Both the position numbers and the translations under genes were made by a program. The notes beneath the pieces are model-generated. The model saw only the letters and a list, made by a program, of their open reading frames with translations. It ran no database searches and was not told the origin of the DNA. Below, one piece after another: positions 2,071-19,334 of a DNA stretch of 42,304 nucleotides (the stretch's first letter is position 1; each line of letters starts with the position of its first letter). The DNA comes from a virus (Duplodnaviria > Heunggongvirae > Uroviricota > Caudoviricetes), in the IMG/VR virus record IMGVR_UViG_2734482773_000007; one strand, 5' to 3'.

Positions 2071-3461
2071 GCTATACCTCTCTTTTTCATGGCATCGAGC
2101 AGGATGTCCTGCACTGTTCGTTTTGAGTTGCGCCGCTCCATCACCATTTCGTCCATAGTGTCGGCAGCAATAATGTGGTGAATAAATACCGGACGATTGT
2201 GTCCGGCCTGTATCTGTCTGGTTGGGCCGATACGTTCAATAATTTGCTGATACTGCTCCAGGTCCCACCAGTGTGAGAAAAATACCAGTATGTTTCCGCC
2301 GTCCTGCATGTTCAGACCGTGGCCCGCGCTGGCTGGGTGTGCAAAGAGAACAGGAATCTTTCCGGAATTCCAGTCACGTAGTGTCTGTGGATCTTGGTCG
2401 AGGTGACGACCGCGAGGAAATGCTTTAAGCAAGCGTTCAAGATCGTGTTTCCAGTGATAAGCAACCAGCACAGGTGCGCCAGCTGCTTCGGTCAATATGC
2501 TGTCCAGCGCCTGTAGTTTGGTGTCATGCAGTTCTGACCAACTTCCGGCGTCGTCTGTGTATACTGCGCCACTGGCGATTTGCAGACACTTCAGTGTCTT
2601 TGCCGCGGCGTTCGGTGCTTCGATGCCTTCGCCATTCAGCTCGAGGAACATTTCCTTTTCCATTTCACGATACTGCTGACGGGCCTTCGGCGGCATATCC
2701 ACGCGGATTACGTTATGGATGGGGGCTTTGATATCGAACCAGTCGGCCGCATCCAGCGAGAGGGTCACATCGGCTAATGCTCGCTGTATTTCAGCCTGTG
2801 AGTGAGCAAACGGCTCCAGTTTGGTCCAGCTCTGCCCTGGAAACTGTATCGAGTTGAACCAGCGTGAGGTAAACGCGCCGTAAGTGCGTCCGAGACGTTG
2901 CCCCTGGTCCACAAACCACGCTTGTCCCCACAAATCTACCAGGCCGTTCGGTGCTGGCGTACCGGTGAGATTTATCCAGCGCCGGACATACTTATGCGCC
3001 ACTTTGCCCAGCGCCGCCGCGCGCTTACCACCACCTCGCAGCCGGAAGGATTTTAGCCGGGTGCTTTCATCCGGAATGACAGTACCGAACGGCCATCGTT
3101 CTCCCAATTCTTCAACCAGCCAGACAAGGTTATCGTAGTTGATGGTGAACACGCTTGCGTTGCTGTTCGCCAGCGCCGTAGAGCGCGCTTTGGCATTACC
3201 AACAATCGGCTGTACCTCGATATTGCGCAGATGCTTCCATTTCAGCGCTTCATCCGGCCATGTGCTTGCTACAACGCGTAGCGGCGCGAGGACCAGTGCG
3301 GGGCGTGTTTCTGCCCCTGCCATAAAGAGATCTTCCAGCGTAGTGAGCGTTGCCACGGTTTTACCCATCCCCATCCCTGCCCAGATGTTGCCGCGCAGGG
3401 TTTCGGTTTCGTGGTTGATAATGAGATCTTGGTAGGGGCGAGGTATATATTTTTGGGGCAT
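2067..3461 (-). CDS. SNF2-family DEAD/DEAH-box helicase
   Basis: 464 aa; Walker A GMGMGKT near N-terminus, DEST (DExx-like) motif, C-terminal helicase motifs; RBS GGAGCC 7 nt upstream of ATG. Confidence 0.85.
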   Translation of the reverse strand: MPQKYIPRPYQDLIINHETETLRGNIWAGMGMGKTVATLTTLEDLFMAGAETRPALVLAPLRVVASTWPDEALKWKHLRNIEVQPIVGNAKARSTALANSNASVFTINYDNLVWLVEELGERWPFGTVIPDESTRLKSFRLRGGGKRAAALGKVAHKYVRRWINLTGTPAPNGLVDLWGQAWFVDQGQRLGRTYGAFTSRWFNSIQFPGQSWTKLEPFAHSQAEIQRALADVTLSLDAADWFDIKAPIHNVIRVDMPPKARQQYREMEKEMFLELNGEGIEAPNAAAKTLKCLQIASGAVYTDDAGSWSELHDTKLQALDSILTEAAGAPVLVAYHWKHDLERLLKAFPRGRHLDQDPQTLRDWNSGKIPVLFAHPASAGHGLNMQDGGNILVFFSHWWDLEQYQQIIERIGPTRQIQAGHNRPVFIHHIIAADTMDEMVMERRNSKRTVQDILLDAMKKRGIA

Positions 3462-5171: not shown

Positions 5172-5933
5172 TTACGAGGAAGCGTTAGCTATTTGAGCTT
5201 GTGTAAATTCGAAACCAGAATTTTGTAACCGTTGCACTAGACGAGGAACTGTTTCACGTACATGGTCGTTGAAATTCAGATACAAAATCCCGTTAGCATC
5301 AGAAGGCTGTTCTAGGTGCTGTTTCTGAAGGATTGCTACATTGCTGCGCCCTAAGGACGAAAGAAGCATACCCATCTCGAGTACAACGTTCTGTCTTGCG
5401 CGGGGTTGGATTTCTGCTTCACCGGCGCGCTTTGAGTATCCCATATCATCAGGTGTCAAAAGAACAATCCCGAAACGGGTAGCAGTTTGTCCTTGCCCAA
5501 TTTCACGTTCAAGCTCTTCAATAATGGTGAGTCCAGTCCCTCCCGTATTCTGCAAAATGAAATGGTCTGGTAATCCAAGTTTATGAAGGATTAGCTCAAG
5601 TTGCTCCTTTGCAGTATGGTCATGGCCGTGAACAATGAATATCTTTTTGGGGAGCTCAGATGGCTGTTCTACGGCTAGTGGTGTTGCCGTGGGTGGCGTT
5701 CCTAAATGGGTCATTATTGCAGTTTCAACATTGGGACGTTCTTGAGGGTTACCTTGAAACTGAATGGTCCGGGTGGTGTAAAGGTTAACAATTACGCCAT
5801 TCGTTAAACGATAGCAGTCACAAGTCTCACGCTGTTCGTGGGAAAAATTGGTGAACCCACACTCCCTCAAAAAGTCAGGAAAAGTTTCTCTCGGGTATGG
5901 ATAGGTGATCGGCATTTCAGTTAGTTCCTGCAT
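5172..5933 (-). CDS. two-domain accessory protein: N-terminal unknown domain plus C-terminal TIR-like domain (candidate anti-phage effector)
   Basis: 253 aa; C-terminal half KIFIVHGHDHTAKEQLELILHKLGL ... RFGIVLLTPDD ... ARQNVVLEMGMLLSSLGRSNVAIL matches what I recall as the TIR-like 'predicted nucleotide-binding' family signature (VFIVHG start, NV..E.G core); own terminator downstream. Confidence 0.55.
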   Translation of the reverse strand: MQELTEMPITYPYPRETFPDFLRECGFTNFSHEQRETCDCYRLTNGVIVNLYTTRTIQFQGNPQERPNVETAIMTHLGTPPTATPLAVEQPSELPKKIFIVHGHDHTAKEQLELILHKLGLPDHFILQNTGGTGLTIIEELEREIGQGQTATRFGIVLLTPDDMGYSKRAGEAEIQPRARQNVVLEMGMLLSSLGRSNVAILQKQHLEQPSDANGILYLNFNDHVRETVPRLVQRLQNSGFEFTQAQIANASS

Positions 5934-5997: not shown

Positions 5998-8061
5998 TCA
6001 ATCTTTTTTGTAGTGGTACGCCTCAAAACCGCCAGCGTTCAGTGGGATATCGGGCGCCCATTCGGGGTCAGTGGAGAGAAGCGCGGAAAGCGCTTTATCG
6101 TTGAAATCTTCTGTGTCAGGTGCTTCGGTGATCACCTCGTCGTGTACCGTCAGCACAATGCTGTAACCGGCATCTTCGATAAGCGGTATGTTTCCGGCCA
6201 GAACGTCGCGGGCGGCCGCCTGGGTGACGTTCTCCACCAGCTTTCCGCCGTAGGTTTTGAGTCGTTGCCATTTACGCGAATAAGAGTTAACACCCATGTA
6301 GGTGATATTCCCTTGTTCGATAACCGGAGACGGGTAGCATACAGCGCGTCCGGATGGTAGCTGTATGCGCAGCCACGCGCCATCGCGGCGGATTTTAAGA
6401 TAACCGCAATACAATGTTTTTTGCGGTGTGGCGATTGCAGTGCGGACGGTGCGCTCCAGTTCGTACCAGAAATCGCAGGTCGCCGGGTGCGCCCTGCGCC
6501 AGAGACGTTTAAGTGAGTCGCAGGCGATAAATACCCGTTCAGAAAGCCCGTAGGTTGACTTGCGTTTAACCGATTCGTCGTACCAGCTTTTCGCCTCGCG
6601 GATAACATCGCGGGGAATGTTTGGCAGTGCGGCGTTCGCCAGCTCGTCGAGATCGAGACCGTAAACCAGCGCAAAAGTGATGAAAGCCGATACACCACCA
6701 CCATAACCCAGACCGAGCTCCATGACTTTACCGATCTGACGCATGTGTTTATCAACATCATTTGGTGCAATATCGAAAGCTTTTGCATACGCCAGTTTAT
6801 ATAAGTCCGGACCCGTTCCGGCGTCGTACTCTCTGAATGCATTCAGTTTCCATTCTTCTCCCGCCAGCCATGCCAGCATACGGCCTTCAATGTTCGACAA
6901 GTCACTTACCACCAGCTTTTTGCCTGTTGGCGCGATAATGCAGCCACGTAACGCTGAACTGGTTAGTTCCATGATATTGTCAAACAGCAGGTCTGCACAT
7001 CCGGCTTTCAGTGCTTCGATGCCTTCGTCTATTTGTTCCTGTTTTAGTGAAGGGCGGGGAAGGTTCTGGGGCTGGAATAGCCGTCCGGCCCAACGACCGG
7101 TACGTGACGCCCCGCAGAACTGTAGCGTACCGCGTAAGCGCCCGTCGTGGCTTACGCCTTTCATCAGTGCCTTGTATTTACTGGTGCTGGTAGTACTGGC
7201 CTGCAGGCGGATAGCCAGCAGTTCTTTCACGGCAGATGGTAAATCGGGGTCGGCAATACGACGTTCCAGAGTACTGCGTTGCATGTCTGGTAGCTCCACA
7301 CCGTAGGATTCAACAATGTGCTTAATCAACGCGTCTCGTTGTGTGGCTGCCTGCACTTCGCCATCAGTCATTTCCTGTGTACGCTTTGCCAGGCGCTTTT
7401 GTTCCTGGTCTACCGCATCGATCGCAGCGCGTGCGAGTTCCACGTCCATGCAGACGCCCCGGTCGTTGATCTGCTGATCACGATGCCAGAGCGCCAGTTC
7501 TGTCCCCTGATAATTCCACTTCGGCAGACGTTTATAGACTTCGCGCATTGCCTCGATATCCAGTCCGGCGTAAGCAACAAAGCGCCGCCATTCTTCCGGG
7601 TGGGTTTTGCTGGTGGCCCGGCGCAGTTTGCTGTTTTTCGGGCGTGGCTTACAGAACAGCTGGATCAGCGCTTTACCTTCTTTGTCCTTCGCTTTGTCTT
7701 GCGGGACGCCTAGTACTTCGCAGAGTTCCCCCAGAGACCCCGGGAGACCGTGCGCCAGCGCCTGCACCATTGTGTCGCGCCAACGTTCGATTGGCGGTGC
7801 CAGGCGCGGCATTGCATAACGCAGGACGGTGCGGTCGAAGTGAGAGTTATGGAAATAAAGCAGGGTTTCAGGGTCTGCGATTGCTTCGTATAAGCCGTGT
7901 GGAATACCACCACCGGCAGTGATATCCCACACGTTTACGGGTCCGTCGTTGATAGCCCATGCGAACAGCATCACTTCAACGCCTTCGGCATACGCATGGG
8001 TACCGTTCGTAATAGGGATTTCGCAATAGGTTTCTAGGTCACCCCATAGTATATTGGACAT
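5998..8061 (-). CDS. family-A DNA polymerase (PolA-like, with N-terminal 3'-5' exonuclease-like region)
   Basis: 687 aa; overall resemblance to phage PolA proteins; sits within helicase/nuclease/primase replication module. Confidence 0.75.
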
Positions 8062-8454: not shown

Positions 8455-9093
8455 TTAAGCATCTACCCCTTCGTCAGAAGGGAGGCCGATCATTTCGTTG
8501 AGAGTTTCGCGTCGTATAGCTGGCGGAAGCGGAGCAGATGGTGCATCGGCTGGCAGAAGTTCTTTAGCTTCAGGCCACTCTTCCAGCAGGCGCTTAACTG
8601 TGCGCACTTTACTGAGTGCAGCGCTGACATTCTGTCGAATGTCTGACTCATCGCTCTGTATCTGCTCATAAAGTGCATCAAACCCGTAAAACTCTGTAAC
8701 TAGAGGGTCATTTGCCAGAAGGGTAAATTCCCCCGGCGCGATTTTGTGAATATGGTCTGGTGACCCTGATTCATATCCTCGATAGTTACCGTTGAAATAG
8801 ACGGTAACCCGAGAACCTGCCAGATTCAGACACATGTAACACTCTTTCCTGATAATATTATTGGCGGTTTTTAATGCTTCGGGGAATTTTGATACCAGTG
8901 TTTCTATTTTTTTTATAATTTTTAATATTTCAGCTTCTTTCTCTACGCCCCCGATAGCTGCAAGCCGAACACGTTCGGCCCATTCAACACGAGCAGCTCG
9001 TAGTGCTGATTTACGTTTGGGGATACCCGCTTTCTCAAGTGCGTTATTGATGATTTGAGTTTTAAGGTGATTAGTTAATACGGGCTGTGACAT
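8455..9093 (-). CDS. hypothetical phage protein
   Basis: ORF extends to 9123 but GAGGGA RBS precedes the Met at 9093 (MSQPVLTN...); no recognisable motifs. Confidence 0.5.
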   Translation of the reverse strand: MSQPVLTNHLKTQIINNALEKAGIPKRKSALRAARVEWAERVRLAAIGGVEKEAEILKIIKKIETLVSKFPEALKTANNIIRKECYMCLNLAGSRVTVYFNGNYRGYESGSPDHIHKIAPGEFTLLANDPLVTEFYGFDALYEQIQSDESDIRQNVSAALSKVRTVKRLLEEWPEAKELLPADAPSAPLPPAIRRETLNEMIGLPSDEGVDA

Positions 9094-9144
9094 TATTCTT
9101 TCCCTCATGAGATACCCCAGCACGTAGCTGGGGGATGAATATTT

Positions 9145-9693
9145 TTAAATTAGTGCTTCAGCATCAGCACCTTCGCTGATATCGTCGAAATCGTCAGCGC
9201 TTGCCACTCCGCCGCCAGCGAATGCATCGCCGTCTCGCAGGAACTGGACTCCGCCGAGTGAGGCATTAATGCGTTTACCGAAATTATTGTCCTGTGCCCA
9301 GATATCGATAACGGCGTTTACATAGCACCCTGCATAGGGACGTCCATCAGCCTGAATTAGTGGCGAACGATCGCGATCAAGAACAGCTGGGCGCGCTTTG
9401 TTAGCAGCGTTCAGGAAGAAATTGCCGGGAAAGCCTTCATACTCTGCTTTTTCATCACCATCATGCAGGCACAGATTGAGTTTTTTCTCCAGCTGGTTAT
9501 AAATGGACTCCCACTTCTCCCCCCATTTTTCCTTCGCTACCTGCTTCATAGCTTTACGGATTTCTTCCAGTTGTGGGTGTTTGGGAGACATTAAAAATAC
9601 TGCGGAGAAACGCGGATCGCCTTCGCCGTTTACAGTTTTAGCTTCAAACAGAGACGGGAAGGCCAGACGAACATTGTTCAGCTTCAGTTTCAT
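9145..9693 (-). CDS. DUF2815-like phage protein (possible ssDNA-binding fold)
   Basis: 182 aa starting MKLKLNNVRLAF, which I recall as typical of the DUF2815 family found beside DUF2800 in phage replication modules. Confidence 0.5.
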   Translation of the reverse strand: MKLKLNNVRLAFPSLFEAKTVNGEGDPRFSAVFLMSPKHPQLEEIRKAMKQVAKEKWGEKWESIYNQLEKKLNLCLHDGDEKAEYEGFPGNFFLNAANKARPAVLDRDRSPLIQADGRPYAGCYVNAVIDIWAQDNNFGKRINASLGGVQFLRDGDAFAGGGVASADDFDDISEGADAEALI

Positions 9694-12695: not shown

Positions 12696-13319
12696 CTAAC
12701 GTTTACGGCGGTAAATACGGTGTTCGATCATTACACCTATGATCTGTAAGTTCATATCTGCACTACGAAAAATAGGGTAATCAGGATTTAGGGGGATTAA
12801 TTCAAAGTCGTCGATGCCGATTCCTAATGGACGGTATTTTTTAAATGTAGCTTCGTGACCGTCGTTTTTGGCGACAACAAACTCCCCTGGTGCAGGACAT
12901 AGATCAGGATCGATGATAACAATGTCTCCTTCTTTAAACTCTGGTTGCATGCTGTCGCCATCGATACGTAATGCGAAGCATGTTTCTGGAATGTCAGAGT
13001 CTGCCAAAATATATTCAAATTCCCCTGTCAGATCTGTTATGTCTCTTGCTTCTGTAAGCTCTCCTGCCTGAACGTAACTTAATATAGGTATGCGTCTGGT
13101 ACTTATCTCCGCGAGAGGCATAATATTTTTACCGTTCAGTAGCCAGTCTGGGCTACATTTCAAGGCCTTAGCCAGATCCAGAAGATTGCGTGGCTTTCTG
13201 GTTCGTCCACTTTCGATGGATTCTATGGATTGTTGGCTAACCCCTGCAGAATTCGCTACTTCCACTTGAGTCATTCCTAATTCCAAACGACGTGCTTTAA
13301 AACGGGCTGCGAGAGACAT
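12696..13319 (-). CDS. CI-like prophage repressor (HTH_XRE + S24/LexA-type peptidase domain)
   Basis: N-terminal HTH (LGMTQVEVANSAGVSQQSIESIESG), C-terminal autocleavage-type domain (DGDSM ... K motif region); start chosen at internal Met (MSLAARF); divergent from a Cro-like gene. Confidence 0.85.
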   Translation of the reverse strand: MSLAARFKARRLELGMTQVEVANSAGVSQQSIESIESGRTRKPRNLLDLAKALKCSPDWLLNGKNIMPLAEISTRRIPILSYVQAGELTEARDITDLTGEFEYILADSDIPETCFALRIDGDSMQPEFKEGDIVIIDPDLCPAPGEFVVAKNDGHEATFKKYRPLGIGIDDFELIPLNPDYPIFRSADMNLQIIGVMIEHRIYRRKR

Positions 13320-13382
13320 GGGATTAGTCCTTCTGGGTTGTATTAATGTGTATCCCCACATTAAAAACAATTTTTGTTGTAT

Positions 13383-13412: not shown

Positions 13413-13439
13413 CCACTAAAATTGTATGAGGTGAAAGCA

Positions 13440-13652
13440 ATGACCTTAGCGACCCGAGTAAAAGAACGACGTAAAGAACTCAAAATGACGCAAGTTACGT
13501 TGGCTGAGCTCACAGGAGTGAGCCAGCAGGCAATAAACAGAATTGAAAGTGGTGTTATTGCTCGGCCACGTTATCTTCTTGAAATGTCTATAGCATTGGA
13601 TTGCGACCCTAATTGGCTGTTGTATGGCTCACAAAACGATAAAAAGGCTTAA
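13440..13652 (+). CDS. Cro-like HTH_XRE regulator
   Basis: 70 aa from internal Met; HTH LKMTQVTLAELTGVSQQAINRIESG; divergent from the repressor. Confidence 0.75.
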   Translation: MTLATRVKERRKELKMTQVTLAELTGVSQQAINRIESGVIARPRYLLEMSIALDCDPNWLLYGSQNDKKA

Positions 13653-13655
13653 CCC

Positions 13656-15848
13656 ATGTCCGATAGCAAACCATGGGGAGCTACGCCTGATGAGTGGTTT
13701 CATTTCGACCTGGTATTGGGGAGAACTGATCATCTTCTCCCAGTTGTATGTAACCCCAGTGCGACCATATCCCCTGATAGTAAACTGAAAGCGTTGGGTA
13801 AGACGCCGAGTCGCTATAACCGGGACCGCCAGGTCACCGGTATTGCTCAATGGACCGGGCATGTTGTTACTGAGCATGATTTTGCCCGCTGGTCGAATGA
13901 ACCGGATTATGGCATCTGCGTGCGTACAGGCCATGGCTGGCTGGCGCTGGACTGTGATAGCGAAGATGAAGACATTCAGGCAGATATTCGCAAAACGCTT
14001 GTGCAACTTCTGGGTGAGTTGCCGCCGCGACGCTGGCGAGCAAACAGTAATAAGTGTCTGTATCTGCTGGCCGTTGATGGTGATTTCCGTAAGCGTATCC
14101 ATCGCCTGGCGGGGGATATGGGCATTATCGAGTTGCTGGCGAACGGGCAGCAGTTCGTTGCCTGCGGTACGCACAGCAGCGGCGCGCGTATTGAATGGGA
14201 CGGCGGTTTGCCGGATGAACCTCCGGCTATTACTGGTGAGCAGCTTGAAACGCTGTGGCAGCGCCTGGCTGAACAACTCCCTGTGTCGGTAACCACCGAA
14301 GCGGGCAACACGAAGATGCGCGACCGATCAGCATTCACGCCCGGCGCGACGGATGATACAGCTGAATATCTTGATGCCAATGGCTGGACGCTGCTGGATG
14401 GCGCAAATGGTGAACGATATATCCGCTGTCCGTTTGAAGACGGCCACAGTAGCGGGGGCGATCCAACAAGCACAGTTTATTTTCCTGCGGGAACCGCGGG
14501 CTTTGAGCAGGGGCATTTTAAATGCCTGCATGCCAGTTGTGCGCATCGTGATGACGGAGATTTCCTTAATGCCATTGGGATCCGCAACGACGATTTCGAA
14601 GATCTGACCAGCACCGAAGTGGCGGAACCTTTACCGCTGCCTGCTTTCGAGCGTGATAAATGGGGGCGTATCGAGGCAACAATCAGCAACGCAGCCAAAG
14701 CAGTAGTACGCCCTGATTTTGTGGACATCGATATTCGCTTTGACCAGTTCCGCGACGAAATCATGTTTGCCCCTGCAGGATCCGGACAATGGCGGGCATT
14801 CACCGATGCGGATTATGCGCGCCTGCGCATCACGATGGAAAAGCGGGGATTTAAACCTGTTGGTCGTGAACTTATTCGCGATGTGGTGTTACTTGCAGCC
14901 GATGAACAACCATTCGATTCAGCGATCACCTGGCTGAACGGACTGGAGTGGGATGGCGTGTCGCGCATCGAATGTTTCTACCATACGCACTTCGGTACCG
15001 CCGACACGCCTTATACCCGTGCGGTGTCTATGTACATGTGGACCGCGTTGGCGGGGCGAGTACTGGAGCCAGGCATCAAAGCGGATATGGTGCCGATCCT
15101 CGTTGGTCCGCAGGGCTGCGGTAAGTCTTCCGGAGTGGAGGCACTGAGCCCTGATCCTGCGTTTTTTACTGAAATCTCTTTTGCCGAAAAAGACGATGAT
15201 CTCGCTCGAAAAATGCGTGGTCGGCTGGTGGCAGAGATTGGTGAACTGCGCGGACTTAATACCAAAGAGCTGGAGTCAATCAAAGCGTTTGTGACGCGTA
15301 CTCACGAAAACTGGATCCCGAAATACCGGGAGTTCGCCACCCAGTTTCCTCGTCGCCTGGTGTTCGTTGGTACCACCAATGAGGACGAATTCCTTGCGGA
15401 CAAGACTGGTAACCGTCGCTGGCTCCCCGTGGAAGTGTCGAAAGTCGACGTGAAAGCGATAAAAAGAGATCTCCTTTTACTTTGGGCTGAGGCTCGTGAG
15501 GTGTTTCAGCGTCTGGGGGGTATCCAGTTCCGTGAGGCTGAACAACTGGCAGCGAGTGTCCATGAACAGTACACCATCAAGGATGCTTGGCTTGAAACGG
15601 TAGAGAAATGGCTCGACACGCCAGACCTGATGACTAATGAACTTCCGCGAAATTGCGAATTTTTACGCGCAAGTGATGTTTTGCGTGATGCGATTGGGCT
15701 AAATCCTGACCGCATCGGAAAACGCGAAGAAATGCGAATTAGTAATGTTTTGCAAAATTGCGGGTATAAGCGTGCCCAAAGGCGAATTGGGGGGAAAATG
15801 ACTCGAATTTTTGAGGCGGTGTCCCAACCTGTACCAACCTCAAAATAG
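13656..15848 (+). CDS. DNA primase: N-terminal PrimPol-like domain plus C-terminal VirE/P4-type NTPase
   Basis: 730 aa; Walker A GPQGCGKSS and Walker B-like LVAEIGE in the C-terminal half; N-terminal region resembles bifunctional primase-polymerase; followed by iterons. Confidence 0.75.
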   Translation: MSDSKPWGATPDEWFHFDLVLGRTDHLLPVVCNPSATISPDSKLKALGKTPSRYNRDRQVTGIAQWTGHVVTEHDFARWSNEPDYGICVRTGHGWLALDCDSEDEDIQADIRKTLVQLLGELPPRRWRANSNKCLYLLAVDGDFRKRIHRLAGDMGIIELLANGQQFVACGTHSSGARIEWDGGLPDEPPAITGEQLETLWQRLAEQLPVSVTTEAGNTKMRDRSAFTPGATDDTAEYLDANGWTLLDGANGERYIRCPFEDGHSSGGDPTSTVYFPAGTAGFEQGHFKCLHASCAHRDDGDFLNAIGIRNDDFEDLTSTEVAEPLPLPAFERDKWGRIEATISNAAKAVVRPDFVDIDIRFDQFRDEIMFAPAGSGQWRAFTDADYARLRITMEKRGFKPVGRELIRDVVLLAADEQPFDSAITWLNGLEWDGVSRIECFYHTHFGTADTPYTRAVSMYMWTALAGRVLEPGIKADMVPILVGPQGCGKSSGVEALSPDPAFFTEISFAEKDDDLARKMRGRLVAEIGELRGLNTKELESIKAFVTRTHENWIPKYREFATQFPRRLVFVGTTNEDEFLADKTGNRRWLPVEVSKVDVKAIKRDLLLLWAEAREVFQRLGGIQFREAEQLAASVHEQYTIKDAWLETVEKWLDTPDLMTNELPRNCEFLRASDVLRDAIGLNPDRIGKREEMRISNVLQNCGYKRAQRRIGGKMTRIFEAVSQPVPTSK

Positions 15849-16003
15849 AGGTTGGTACATTTTAACTAATTGAATTTAAAGGCCTGTACCAACTGTACCA
15901 TCTGTACCAACCTAATTACTAAGAACCCCATATATATATATAAGTCGCTTGGGGAAAAGGTTTGAAAAGAGCTGGTACAGGTGGGTACAGGTTGGTACAG
16001 GCC
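15828..16003. repeat. iteron cluster with AT-rich spacer (candidate replication origin)
   Basis: At least eight copies of the 9-10 bp motif GGTTGGTACAG / CTGTACCAAC in both orientations (15828-15839, 15850-15859, 15884-15912 three tandem, 15971-16000 three tandem) flanking ATATATATATATA at 15930-15943. Confidence 0.6.
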
Positions 16004-16129
16004 GAACAAGGAATTTTTTGCACATAACAGCGTGTAATAAGCGAATCGGAACTGCGTTATCCACACCCACGGATAAACAAACGTGGTTCTCAGAAAATTT
16101 TTTCGTAGCAAAACGTAGAGGTCAGAGCT

Positions 16130-16552
16130 ATGCGTAATATTCAACAGGTTTTAGAGCGCTGGGGTGGCTGGGCTGCGAGTGAAGGTGGTAGCGTCTACTT
16201 TCCTCCTGTTGCAGCTGGGTTTAAGAATCTGCTACCCGCGACGCAGTCTGGAAGGCTGAAATGCAGTGACAATGACGGTCTTATCATCAACTCCGCTATG
16301 AGCTGCCTGAAGAAAAAAGATCCGTATCTGTGCACGCTCCTTGAGTGGCATTACGTCCAGGCCATGCCCGTGCGGACGATGGGTGAGAAGCTCGGCGTAT
16401 CTCACACCCACGTTCTGAAGAGGCTTCAGGCGGCAGAGGGATTTATTGACGGTTGCTTAGCCATGCTGGATGTGGTGCTCGAAATGGATCAGTCGGTTCA
16501 GTCAAAGCCTCAGGCTATCAGGACTTTGCGTAGGAGCTGCTCGGCGGCATAA
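16130..16552 (+). CDS. Q: late-gene antiterminator Q (phage 82/21 type)
   Basis: 140 aa starting MRNIQQVLERWGGWAA, closely resembling what I recall of the phage 82-type Q protein N-terminus; located just upstream of the lysis cassette. Confidence 0.7.
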   Translation: MRNIQQVLERWGGWAASEGGSVYFPPVAAGFKNLLPATQSGRLKCSDNDGLIINSAMSCLKKKDPYLCTLLEWHYVQAMPVRTMGEKLGVSHTHVLKRLQAAEGFIDGCLAMLDVVLEMDQSVQSKPQAIRTLRRSCSAA

Positions 16553-18761: not shown

Positions 18762-19334
18762 ATGACTAAGAAGCTGAAAGCAAAACACGAGGTGTTTTGT
18801 CGCGAGTTTCTTGTCGATCTGAATGCTACACAAGCAGCTATTCGCGCAGGCTACGTCTCCAGGCGAGCACATGTTACGGGGGCTGAACTATACGGTAAAC
18901 CTGAGATACGCGCCCGTATTAACGAGCTAAAGCAGGAGCGTATTGATCAACTGGGCATTGATGCGAATTATGTGCTGATGCGACTGGTTGAGATCGACAG
19001 GCTCGATGTGGCTGACATCCTGGAGGACGATTTAAGTATTAAGCCTCTGTCTGCGTGGCCGGAATCGTGGCGTCGGTACCTGAGTGGATTTAACCTCGCT
19101 GAAATGTTTGAGGGGCGAGGAGATGACAGAGAAATGGTCGGGATCCTTAAAAAGATTAAGTGGCCTGATAAGGTTAAAAACCTTGAGTTGCTTGGGCGTC
19201 ATGTTTCTGTTCAGGCGTTTAAAGACAACGTCAAAAATGAAGTGACTGGCGCTGATGGAGGACCCGTCAGAACAGAAATTACCAACTTAACGCCGGAGCA
19301 GGCTGCAGAGGCGTATAGAAAAATGATGGGCTAA
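18762..19334 (+). CDS. terminase small subunit
   Basis: 190 aa; N-terminal [24 protein letters not shown] is the typical Terminase_2-type HTH signature; precedes TerL. Confidence 0.75.

Follow-up and report, generated by a model that had tools for sequence, protein, structure and literature searches.

What is the function of the dense array of short repeats that lies between the primase-helicase gene and the Q antiterminator gene of an integrated temperate prophage of Escherichia coli? The prophage is contained in the IMG/VR record IMGVR_UViG_2734482773_000007, a stretch of 42,304 nt (hereafter the window, i.e., the whole stretch of DNA analysed), in which the array occupies positions 15819-16000, from 30 nt before to 152 nt after the stop codon of the gene for a 730-aa primase-helicase (13656-15848, + strand). 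A first-pass annotation of the letters alone had read these repeats as a primase-loaded origin lying between this gene and Q (16130-16552, + strand), and its placement of the two flanking genes holds. We consider it highly probable that 15819-16000, within a cassette that extends to ca. 16040, is the replication origin of the prophage and is served in cis by the initiator encoded immediately upstream. This reading is supported because the array sits directly 3' of a gene that joins a PrimPol domain, a superfamily 3 (SF3) helicase and a predicted winged helix, because opposed sets of repeats (iterons) enclose easily melted DNA, and because the iteron sequence covaries with C-terminal residues of the protein.

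Nine matches to GGTTGGTACAG (at most two mismatches) fall within 15819-16000, where they form three blocks: on the minus strand at 15819-29 (degenerate), 15829-39, 15884-94, 15893-903 and 15902-12, and on the plus strand at 15850-60, 15970-80, 15980-90 and 15990-16000. Block 1 (15819-15860) combines the two leftmost copies, in tandem at 10-bp spacing, with the inverted copy at 15850-60, and is followed by an AT-rich spacer (15861-15883, TTTTAACTAATTGAATTTAAAGG, 73-77% AT) that is kept in most of the iteron classes described below and has a GC-rich replacement in class B. Block 2 (15884-15912, minus strand) holds three tandem copies at 9-bp spacing (CTGTACCAA, CTGTACCAT and CTGTACCAACC), and block 3 (15970-16000, plus strand) three tandem copies at 10-bp spacing in the opposite orientation (AGCTGGTACAG, GGTGGGTACAG and GGTTGGTACAG). 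These 3 + 3 inverted copies flank a 57-bp central spacer (15913-15969), the proposed DNA-unwinding element, which carries the (AT)6.5 tract ATATATATATATA at 15930-15942 and the least stable 30-mer of the entire 12.5-17.5 kb region (15913-15942, nearest-neighbour free energy -29.1; top 0.14% of the window). To the right lies the cassette flank (16001-16040, beginning GCCGAACAAGGAATTTTTTGCA), whose first ~22 bp are common to the classes and near the end of which identity to a class-B relative returns. The earlier description, i.e., at least eight direct and inverted copies, partly tandem at 9-10 bp, around an (AT)n tract, agrees with this anatomy, as does the location, except that the array begins ca. 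10 bp to the left of the start given before (15828), with two copies inside the open reading frame (ORF).

A motif scan of the whole prophage, which the first-pass annotation had proposed as a check, found five further matches at up to two mismatches in the remaining 42 kb, roughly the chance level. The exact core GGTACAG occurs 15 times in the window, seven of them in the array, against an expectation of 2.7 for the whole window, and a count of 15 was reached in none of 100 shuffles. GC and AT skew along the window tracked the direction of transcription only and gave no origin signal.

The protein encoded next to the array carries a PrimPol domain at aa 53-185 (PF09250, E 2e-10, 41.6 bits vs. 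a cut-off of 22.8), which was seen only when the N-terminus was scanned alone and was missed by the full-length Pfam scan, and an SF3 helicase at aa 427-639 (PF05272, VapE-like, E 2e-60). It matches helicase and primase families in PHROG and no model in NCBIfam, and its sole sequence match in the PDB (phmmer) is 7pds_A, Rep1 of the Staphylococcus aureus pathogenicity island SaPI1 (E 6e-34 over aa 393-657), an entry that represents a Rep1-DNA complex (PMC9371898). An AlphaFold2 model of aa 580-730, of moderate confidence (mean predicted local distance difference test score 73; 83-88 over ~670-720), ends in helices 672-680 and 689-701 followed by a beta-hairpin (704-711 / 714-721), i.e., a winged helix. 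The corresponding coding region spans 15585-15818 (+ strand, ~aa 644-721), and the recognition-type helix (aa 689-701) reads REEMRISNVLQNC. Judged by domain matches and model, the protein is a fusion of a PrimPol primase, a VapE-type SF3 helicase and a predicted winged helix, like PriRep5 of SaPI5. The origin architecture claimed in the first-pass annotation is retained here, but the term primase-loaded is imprecise, as the candidate initiator is a fused, self-loading helicase whose C-terminal winged helix is the likely reader of the DNA.

To place the array in an evolutionary context, we took the region after the homologous gene from four E. coli chromosomes, 80 IMG/VR contigs, the phages YeP4 and APSE-7, and 13 genomes of other genera, giving ~100 related loci that span the Enterobacterales to a metagenome-assembled genome (MAG) of the Nitrosomonadaceae. 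Every locus with an intact gene is laid out alike: first a palindromic block, at the stop codon or close to it, then a spacer of ~25 nt, three tandem copies at 9 bp (as in every class looked at), a ~57-nt spacer with CCCCATATATATATATAAGTCG, and finally three to four inverted copies at 9-10 bp. The array keeps company with the primase-helicase gene in all relatives regardless of the downstream genes, and none of the related records examined (RefSeq E. coli loci, YeP4, APSE-7) annotates it. The iterons themselves fall into at least 12 distinct sequences, those listed below with their protein motifs plus GTAACAACC in APSE and additional classes in Pluralibacter, Providencia, Orbaceae and the Nitrosomonadaceae MAG. 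Within one locus all iteron copies change in concert, while the sequence of the central spacer, CCCCATATATATATATAAGTCG..GGGAAAGGTT, is kept across classes inside an otherwise diverged cassette, and the two together argue for a common sequence-specific binder. Iteron number and block count also vary in the family, as seen in IMGVR_UViG_2627853985_000005 (protein 72% identical, motif VSK-VW), whose expanded origin covers ~300 nt after the stop codon with extra tandem TGTAACCA arrays (3 + 3 + 1 inverted + 2 ...) ahead of the AT-rich core.

In an alignment of 72 unique proteins, residues 715 and 716 were the most informative on iteron class, with 715 fully fixed by class, followed by the tail residues encoded by the iterons within the ORF and then by residues 707/708. 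The class-informative residues sit on both strands of the wing in the AlphaFold2 model. Across the ~100 loci and at least 12 classes, the motif that follows a conserved GK (residues 715-719; M-T-R-I-F in the window, codons 15798-15812, + strand) maps one-to-one to iteron class: MTR-IF goes with TGTACCAAC (the class of the window), KCK/KSK-VW with GGAACCAC, LMK-VW with GTTACCAC, VQR-VW with GTAACCAC, VLK-VW with a mix of GTATCCAC and GTAACCAC, KMR-IF with GTCCCAAC, QQR-[IV]F with AGACAACC and QIR-VW with AGACCACC. Outside the wing residues the protein is unrelated to iteron class, residues 1-700 being up to 99.9% identical between classes and down to 72.5% identical within a class. Two class-A loci end straight after the motif (MTRIFEPV, then stop), which shows that class does not depend on the iteron-encoded tail and that the stop-codon overlap is incidental. 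As part of the origin reading, and with the same high degree of confidence, we consider from alignment and model that recognition specificity would reside largely in the wing, i.e., in residues 715-719 plus 707/708 on the paired strand. The mixed origins (class E; L035, L037, L044, L031 and L050) have GTAACCAC in block 1 and in one block-3 copy and GTATCCAC elsewhere, which suggests either that one iteron position is read less strictly or that these origins are midway through a change of specificity. A one-residue/one-base code was also considered, in which residue 719 would be F where A precedes ACCT and W where C does; ten classes fit, APSE-7 breaks the rule, and on these sequences no simple residue-to-base code holds.

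The codons in question mark the left edge of an exchangeable unit. Compared with the class-B locus L011, the window is essentially identical up to 15798 (codon K714), diverges over 15799-16040 with the exception of the central spacer, and is identical again from 16041 into Q. On this sequence comparison, a cassette of ~240 bp that comprises the wing strand and all iterons is swapped among relatives with sharp recombination borders, and the new point that emerges is that the repeats are exchanged jointly with a few residues of the primase-helicase tail.

The covarying codons directly adjoin the array, and linkage therefore contributes to the correlation. One could thus propose that a different host or phage protein binds the iterons and that their correlation with the primase tail reflects nothing but membership of one cassette, an idea that the sharp recombination borders would also suit. 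We give it very little weight. Another class-B locus, L014, shares with the window 99% of CI, 100% of Cro, Q and orf113, and 99.3% of initiator residues 1-700, and so no other nearby protein accounts for the class difference; CI, Cro, Q and orf113 were rejected as iteron binders on this ground. Moreover, the pairing of motif with iteron is the same in different genera (YeP4, Morganella, Pectobacterium, Trabulsiella and Symbiopectobacterium), although their protein backbones are only 66-77% identical and the surrounding C-terminal residues differ; the paired-strand residues 707/708 are class-informative and yet lie outside the cassette defined by L011, and the homologous SaPI Reps bind their iterons through the corresponding domain (PMC9371898).

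The same comparisons bear on a possible role in DNA packaging. Some packaging (pac) sites and centromeres consist of short repeats flanking an AT-rich or bent centre, and the small terminase (TerS) gene (18762-19334) begins only ~2.8 kb downstream of the array, so a recognition site for the terminase or for a partition system would have a similar appearance. However, loci with class B and loci with class C iterons have one and the same TerS (WP_000162796.1), on which basis TerS was rejected as the iteron binder; iteron class follows the helicase C-terminus instead, the array goes with the primase-helicase gene whatever is downstream, and no partition genes are evident in the early region. A packaging or partition site is accordingly an explanation to which we assign scarcely any probability.

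A role in transcription deserves more attention, owing to the structure of block 1. The inverted pair reported to straddle the primase stop codon is indeed present, with 12-bp arms (15830-15841 and 15848-15859), a 6-nt loop and a trailing TTTT, and the TAG (15846-15848) falls in the loop and the right arm. As RNA, 15830-15859 folds with -20.5 kcal/mol (z -6.95), and no other terminator-like site in 12.5-17.5 kb is as strong as this hairpin with its TTTT. Its position is between the early operon and Q, and a scan for sigma-70 promoters detected none from the end of the primase gene to Q. Rfam searches at permissive E-values returned only sub-threshold noise of microRNA precursors, owing to the long inverted repeat. 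On these grounds the repeats could act chiefly in transcription: the hairpin would end the early cro-primase operon as its intrinsic terminator, and the arrays would serve as operators or roadblocks, controlling read-through into Q and thereby the timing of late gene expression. We nevertheless regard this as improbable, given that termination is not a conserved property. Block 1 is found in all classes, but the position of the stop codon and the T-run differ, the latter being lost in classes B and H and at some class G loci and weak in class D, and the overlap of iterons with the stop codon is not conserved among relatives. Termination was for this reason rejected as the primary function of the hairpin, and since the T-run is missing in several classes, a terminator or attenuator role of block 1 is at most facultative. 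The Q module also swaps independently of the array, as L005 carries the iteron class of the window beside a Q that is only 44% identical, and L014 other iterons beside an identical Q; from these pairings it follows that the array is linked to the primase-helicase rather than to Q. The first-pass annotation, which stated that the repeats lie right upstream of Q, was correct on position, but no specific link to Q was found. Finally, a transcriptional function leaves both the inverted triplets around the AT-rich core and the covariation with the helicase C-terminus unexplained. A transcriptional role could still be a secondary function of block 1.

Returning to replication initiation, the homology to the SaPI Reps allows us to infer how binding, melting, loading and origin firing might proceed. 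The C-terminal winged helices of a hexameric protein would read the 9-11-bp iterons, and two oligomers would assemble on the opposed triplets at 15884-15912 and 15970-16000. These may then melt the AT-rich spacer around (AT)6.5, and the SF3 rings would load themselves without a separate loader, after which the N-terminal PrimPol domain would prime and the family-A polymerase and single-stranded DNA-binding protein (SSB) of the phage (5998-8061 and 9145-9693) would extend. Block 1, at the stop codon, would be an additional palindromic binding site, possibly for nucleation or autoregulation. Exchange of the cassette would yield many mutually distinct initiator/origin pairs.

Very similar replicons have been described in satellites, among them SaPI1, SaPI5 and SaPIbov1. 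SaPI Reps are self-loading helicase-initiators whose C-terminal winged helix recognises iterons of 5-6 nt, and SaPI origins comprise 6-12 iterons immediately downstream of rep with an AT-rich centre and at least two oppositely pointing iterons per side (PMC9371898). The phage-inducible chromosomal islands (PICIs) of E. coli share this organisation, and the pri-rep-ori region of EcCICFT073 supports plasmid maintenance (PMC6092414). In every feature that sequence can address, the locus conforms to a SaPI/PICI-type Pri-Rep iteron replicon: a helicase core homologous to SaPI1 Rep1 (7PDS, E 6e-34), a primase fused to the helicase as in SaPI5 and, by their described organisation, the E. coli PICIs, a C-terminal winged helix (here predicted), an origin immediately 3' of the rep gene, short iterons in two opposed sets around an AT-rich centre (here nine copies, 3 + 3 of them flanking), and several allelic specificities among relatives. 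There are differences as well. The iterons are 9-11 bp long rather than 5-6, a third, palindromic block is present at the stop codon, and specificity changes through a ~240-bp cassette on nearly identical proteins, in contrast to SaPI Reps, among which high divergence has been described. The element is likewise a different one, a full-size temperate prophage with family-A polymerase, SSB, lysis and virion genes and a CI/Cro/Q circuit; its gene content over ~40 kb is unlike that of a PICI or satellite (~10-15 kb, without virion genes and helper-dependent).

The alpha protein of phage P4 also unites a primase, an SF3-type helicase and a C-terminal winged-helix origin-binding domain in a single polypeptide, in this case reading octamer iterons in direct and inverted orientation. 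The P4 ori, in contrast, is not placed directly after the alpha gene in three-block form, no cluster equivalent to crr was found in the window (only isolated matches with one or two mismatches, at the chance level), and the P4 origin-binding domain gave no sequence match among PDB chains. As in lambda, the iterons adjoin an AT-rich unwinding region (here a proposed one) and belong to the early rightward operon of a temperate phage, and specificity types are swapped between relatives independently of immunity. The lambda origin, however, is contained within the O gene, whose product is no helicase and needs P to recruit the host DnaB, whereas here the initiator itself is both helicase and primase and the array is mostly intergenic; no O or P family was detected in the window, a single primase-helicase occupying the place between cro and Q.

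Among sequenced phages, Yersinia phages YeP4-6 and the Hamiltonella phage APSE (Sendosyvirus) come closest: their primase-helicases are 71-74% identical, their genes run in the order cI / cro / VapE / Q as here, and the VapE gene is followed by iterons in the three-block arrangement of the window. The iteron sequences are different (AGACAACC and GTAACAACC, respectively). The APSE-7 record (LR794146.1) annotates a 'putative origin of replication region' at 164-264, in the cI-cro gap, derived from the originX program, and an unannotated, full three-block GTAACAACC array flanks an AT-rich tract at 2700-3020, right after the VapE gene. Judging from this sequence, the annotated origin is probably misplaced.

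The remaining genes of the window are in keeping with a temperate phage. A CI-like S24 repressor (12696-13370, - strand) and a Cro-like helix-turn-helix protein (13422-13652, +) precede the primase-helicase, and the genes for lysis, terminase and virion proteins come after Q. On the leftward arm lie genes for a DUF2800 nuclease, an Enc34-type SSB (9145-9693), an Nmad5 protein, a divergent family-A DNA polymerase (5998-8061, -), a TIR-domain protein, an SNF2 helicase and an integrase. Altogether the window encodes an integrase, PolA, SSB, CI/Cro/Q, lysis genes, a terminase and a long run of virion-size ORFs over ~40 kb. The Nmad5 (nucleotide-modification-associated) protein (8455-9123, -) adjoins the SSB, the DUF2800 PD-(D/E)XK nuclease and the polymerase. 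By gene content, the phage has a replisome of its own and may also be able to modify DNA. Between the polymerase and an ORF without assignment, a 253-aa protein (5172-5933, -) has a CAP12/Pycsar-type TIR effector domain (PF10137, E 3e-31) and may, on this domain match, be anti-phage defence cargo.

Several further observations concern the surroundings and distribution of the origin. A perfect DnaA box (TTATCCACA, 16057-16065), the sole copy in the window, lies 57 nt to the right of the last iteron and, with an inverted partial copy at ~16070-16078, forms a small inverted repeat (TTATCC...GGATAA). The segment goes with the Q type of this prophage and is missing where a locus has the other type, and we rejected the box as a part of the origin, as it belongs to a Q-linked module and a lone 9-mer is not significant in 42 kb. 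Nearly identical DNA was present in 140 of 5,426 complete E. coli genomes (~2.6%), with one copy each, and no second copy of primase-helicase and origin was found among these 140; Symbiopectobacterium sp. RP has two copies on two contigs, both with TGTACCAAC. The only match to the cassette in the plasmid database (CP042502.1, Enterobacter sp. E76, a 76.9-kb record; 15725-15920, 80% identity) has no annotated feature beneath it and could represent a phage-plasmid or an excised or misassigned prophage with the same origin type. Two Klebsiella proteins named 'antitermination protein Q' (P0014 and P0024) match the C-terminal part of the primase-helicase at 83-90% identity and yet carry the Q-family domain PF06323, and from their sequences probably result from fusion or from wrong ORF calls over a degraded origin region of prophage remnants.

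As a tentative and rather doubtful extension, we postulate that the cassette constitutes a natural kit of orthogonal initiator/origin pairs in which two to five wing residues reprogram the 9-11-bp iteron read. Exchange among near-identical prophages would then be driven by selection to avoid being cross-activated or hijacked by relatives and satellites that are co-resident. More boldly, occupancy by the initiator of block 1, a palindrome that forms a hairpin with a T-run in many classes, might tune read-through into Q and thereby couple replication to late transcription.

The Pri-Rep iteron origin type is already known from staphylococcal and E. coli phage satellites, and on sequence grounds it is present here in a complete temperate prophage. 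Complete phages of Gram-negative bacteria would thus use the self-loading Pri-Rep replicon of SaPIs and PICIs. The natural series of 12 or more iteron classes, carried by proteins that are nearly identical, offers a ready test set for DNA reading by the wing of a winged helix and could supply orthogonal replicons for engineering. For the phages themselves, the origin proposed here would give a site and a mechanism of replication initiation to a widespread, unstudied temperate group that occurs in ~2.6% of the complete E. coli genomes, with relatives in Yersinia, Morganella and Pectobacterium and in the aphid-symbiont phage APSE.

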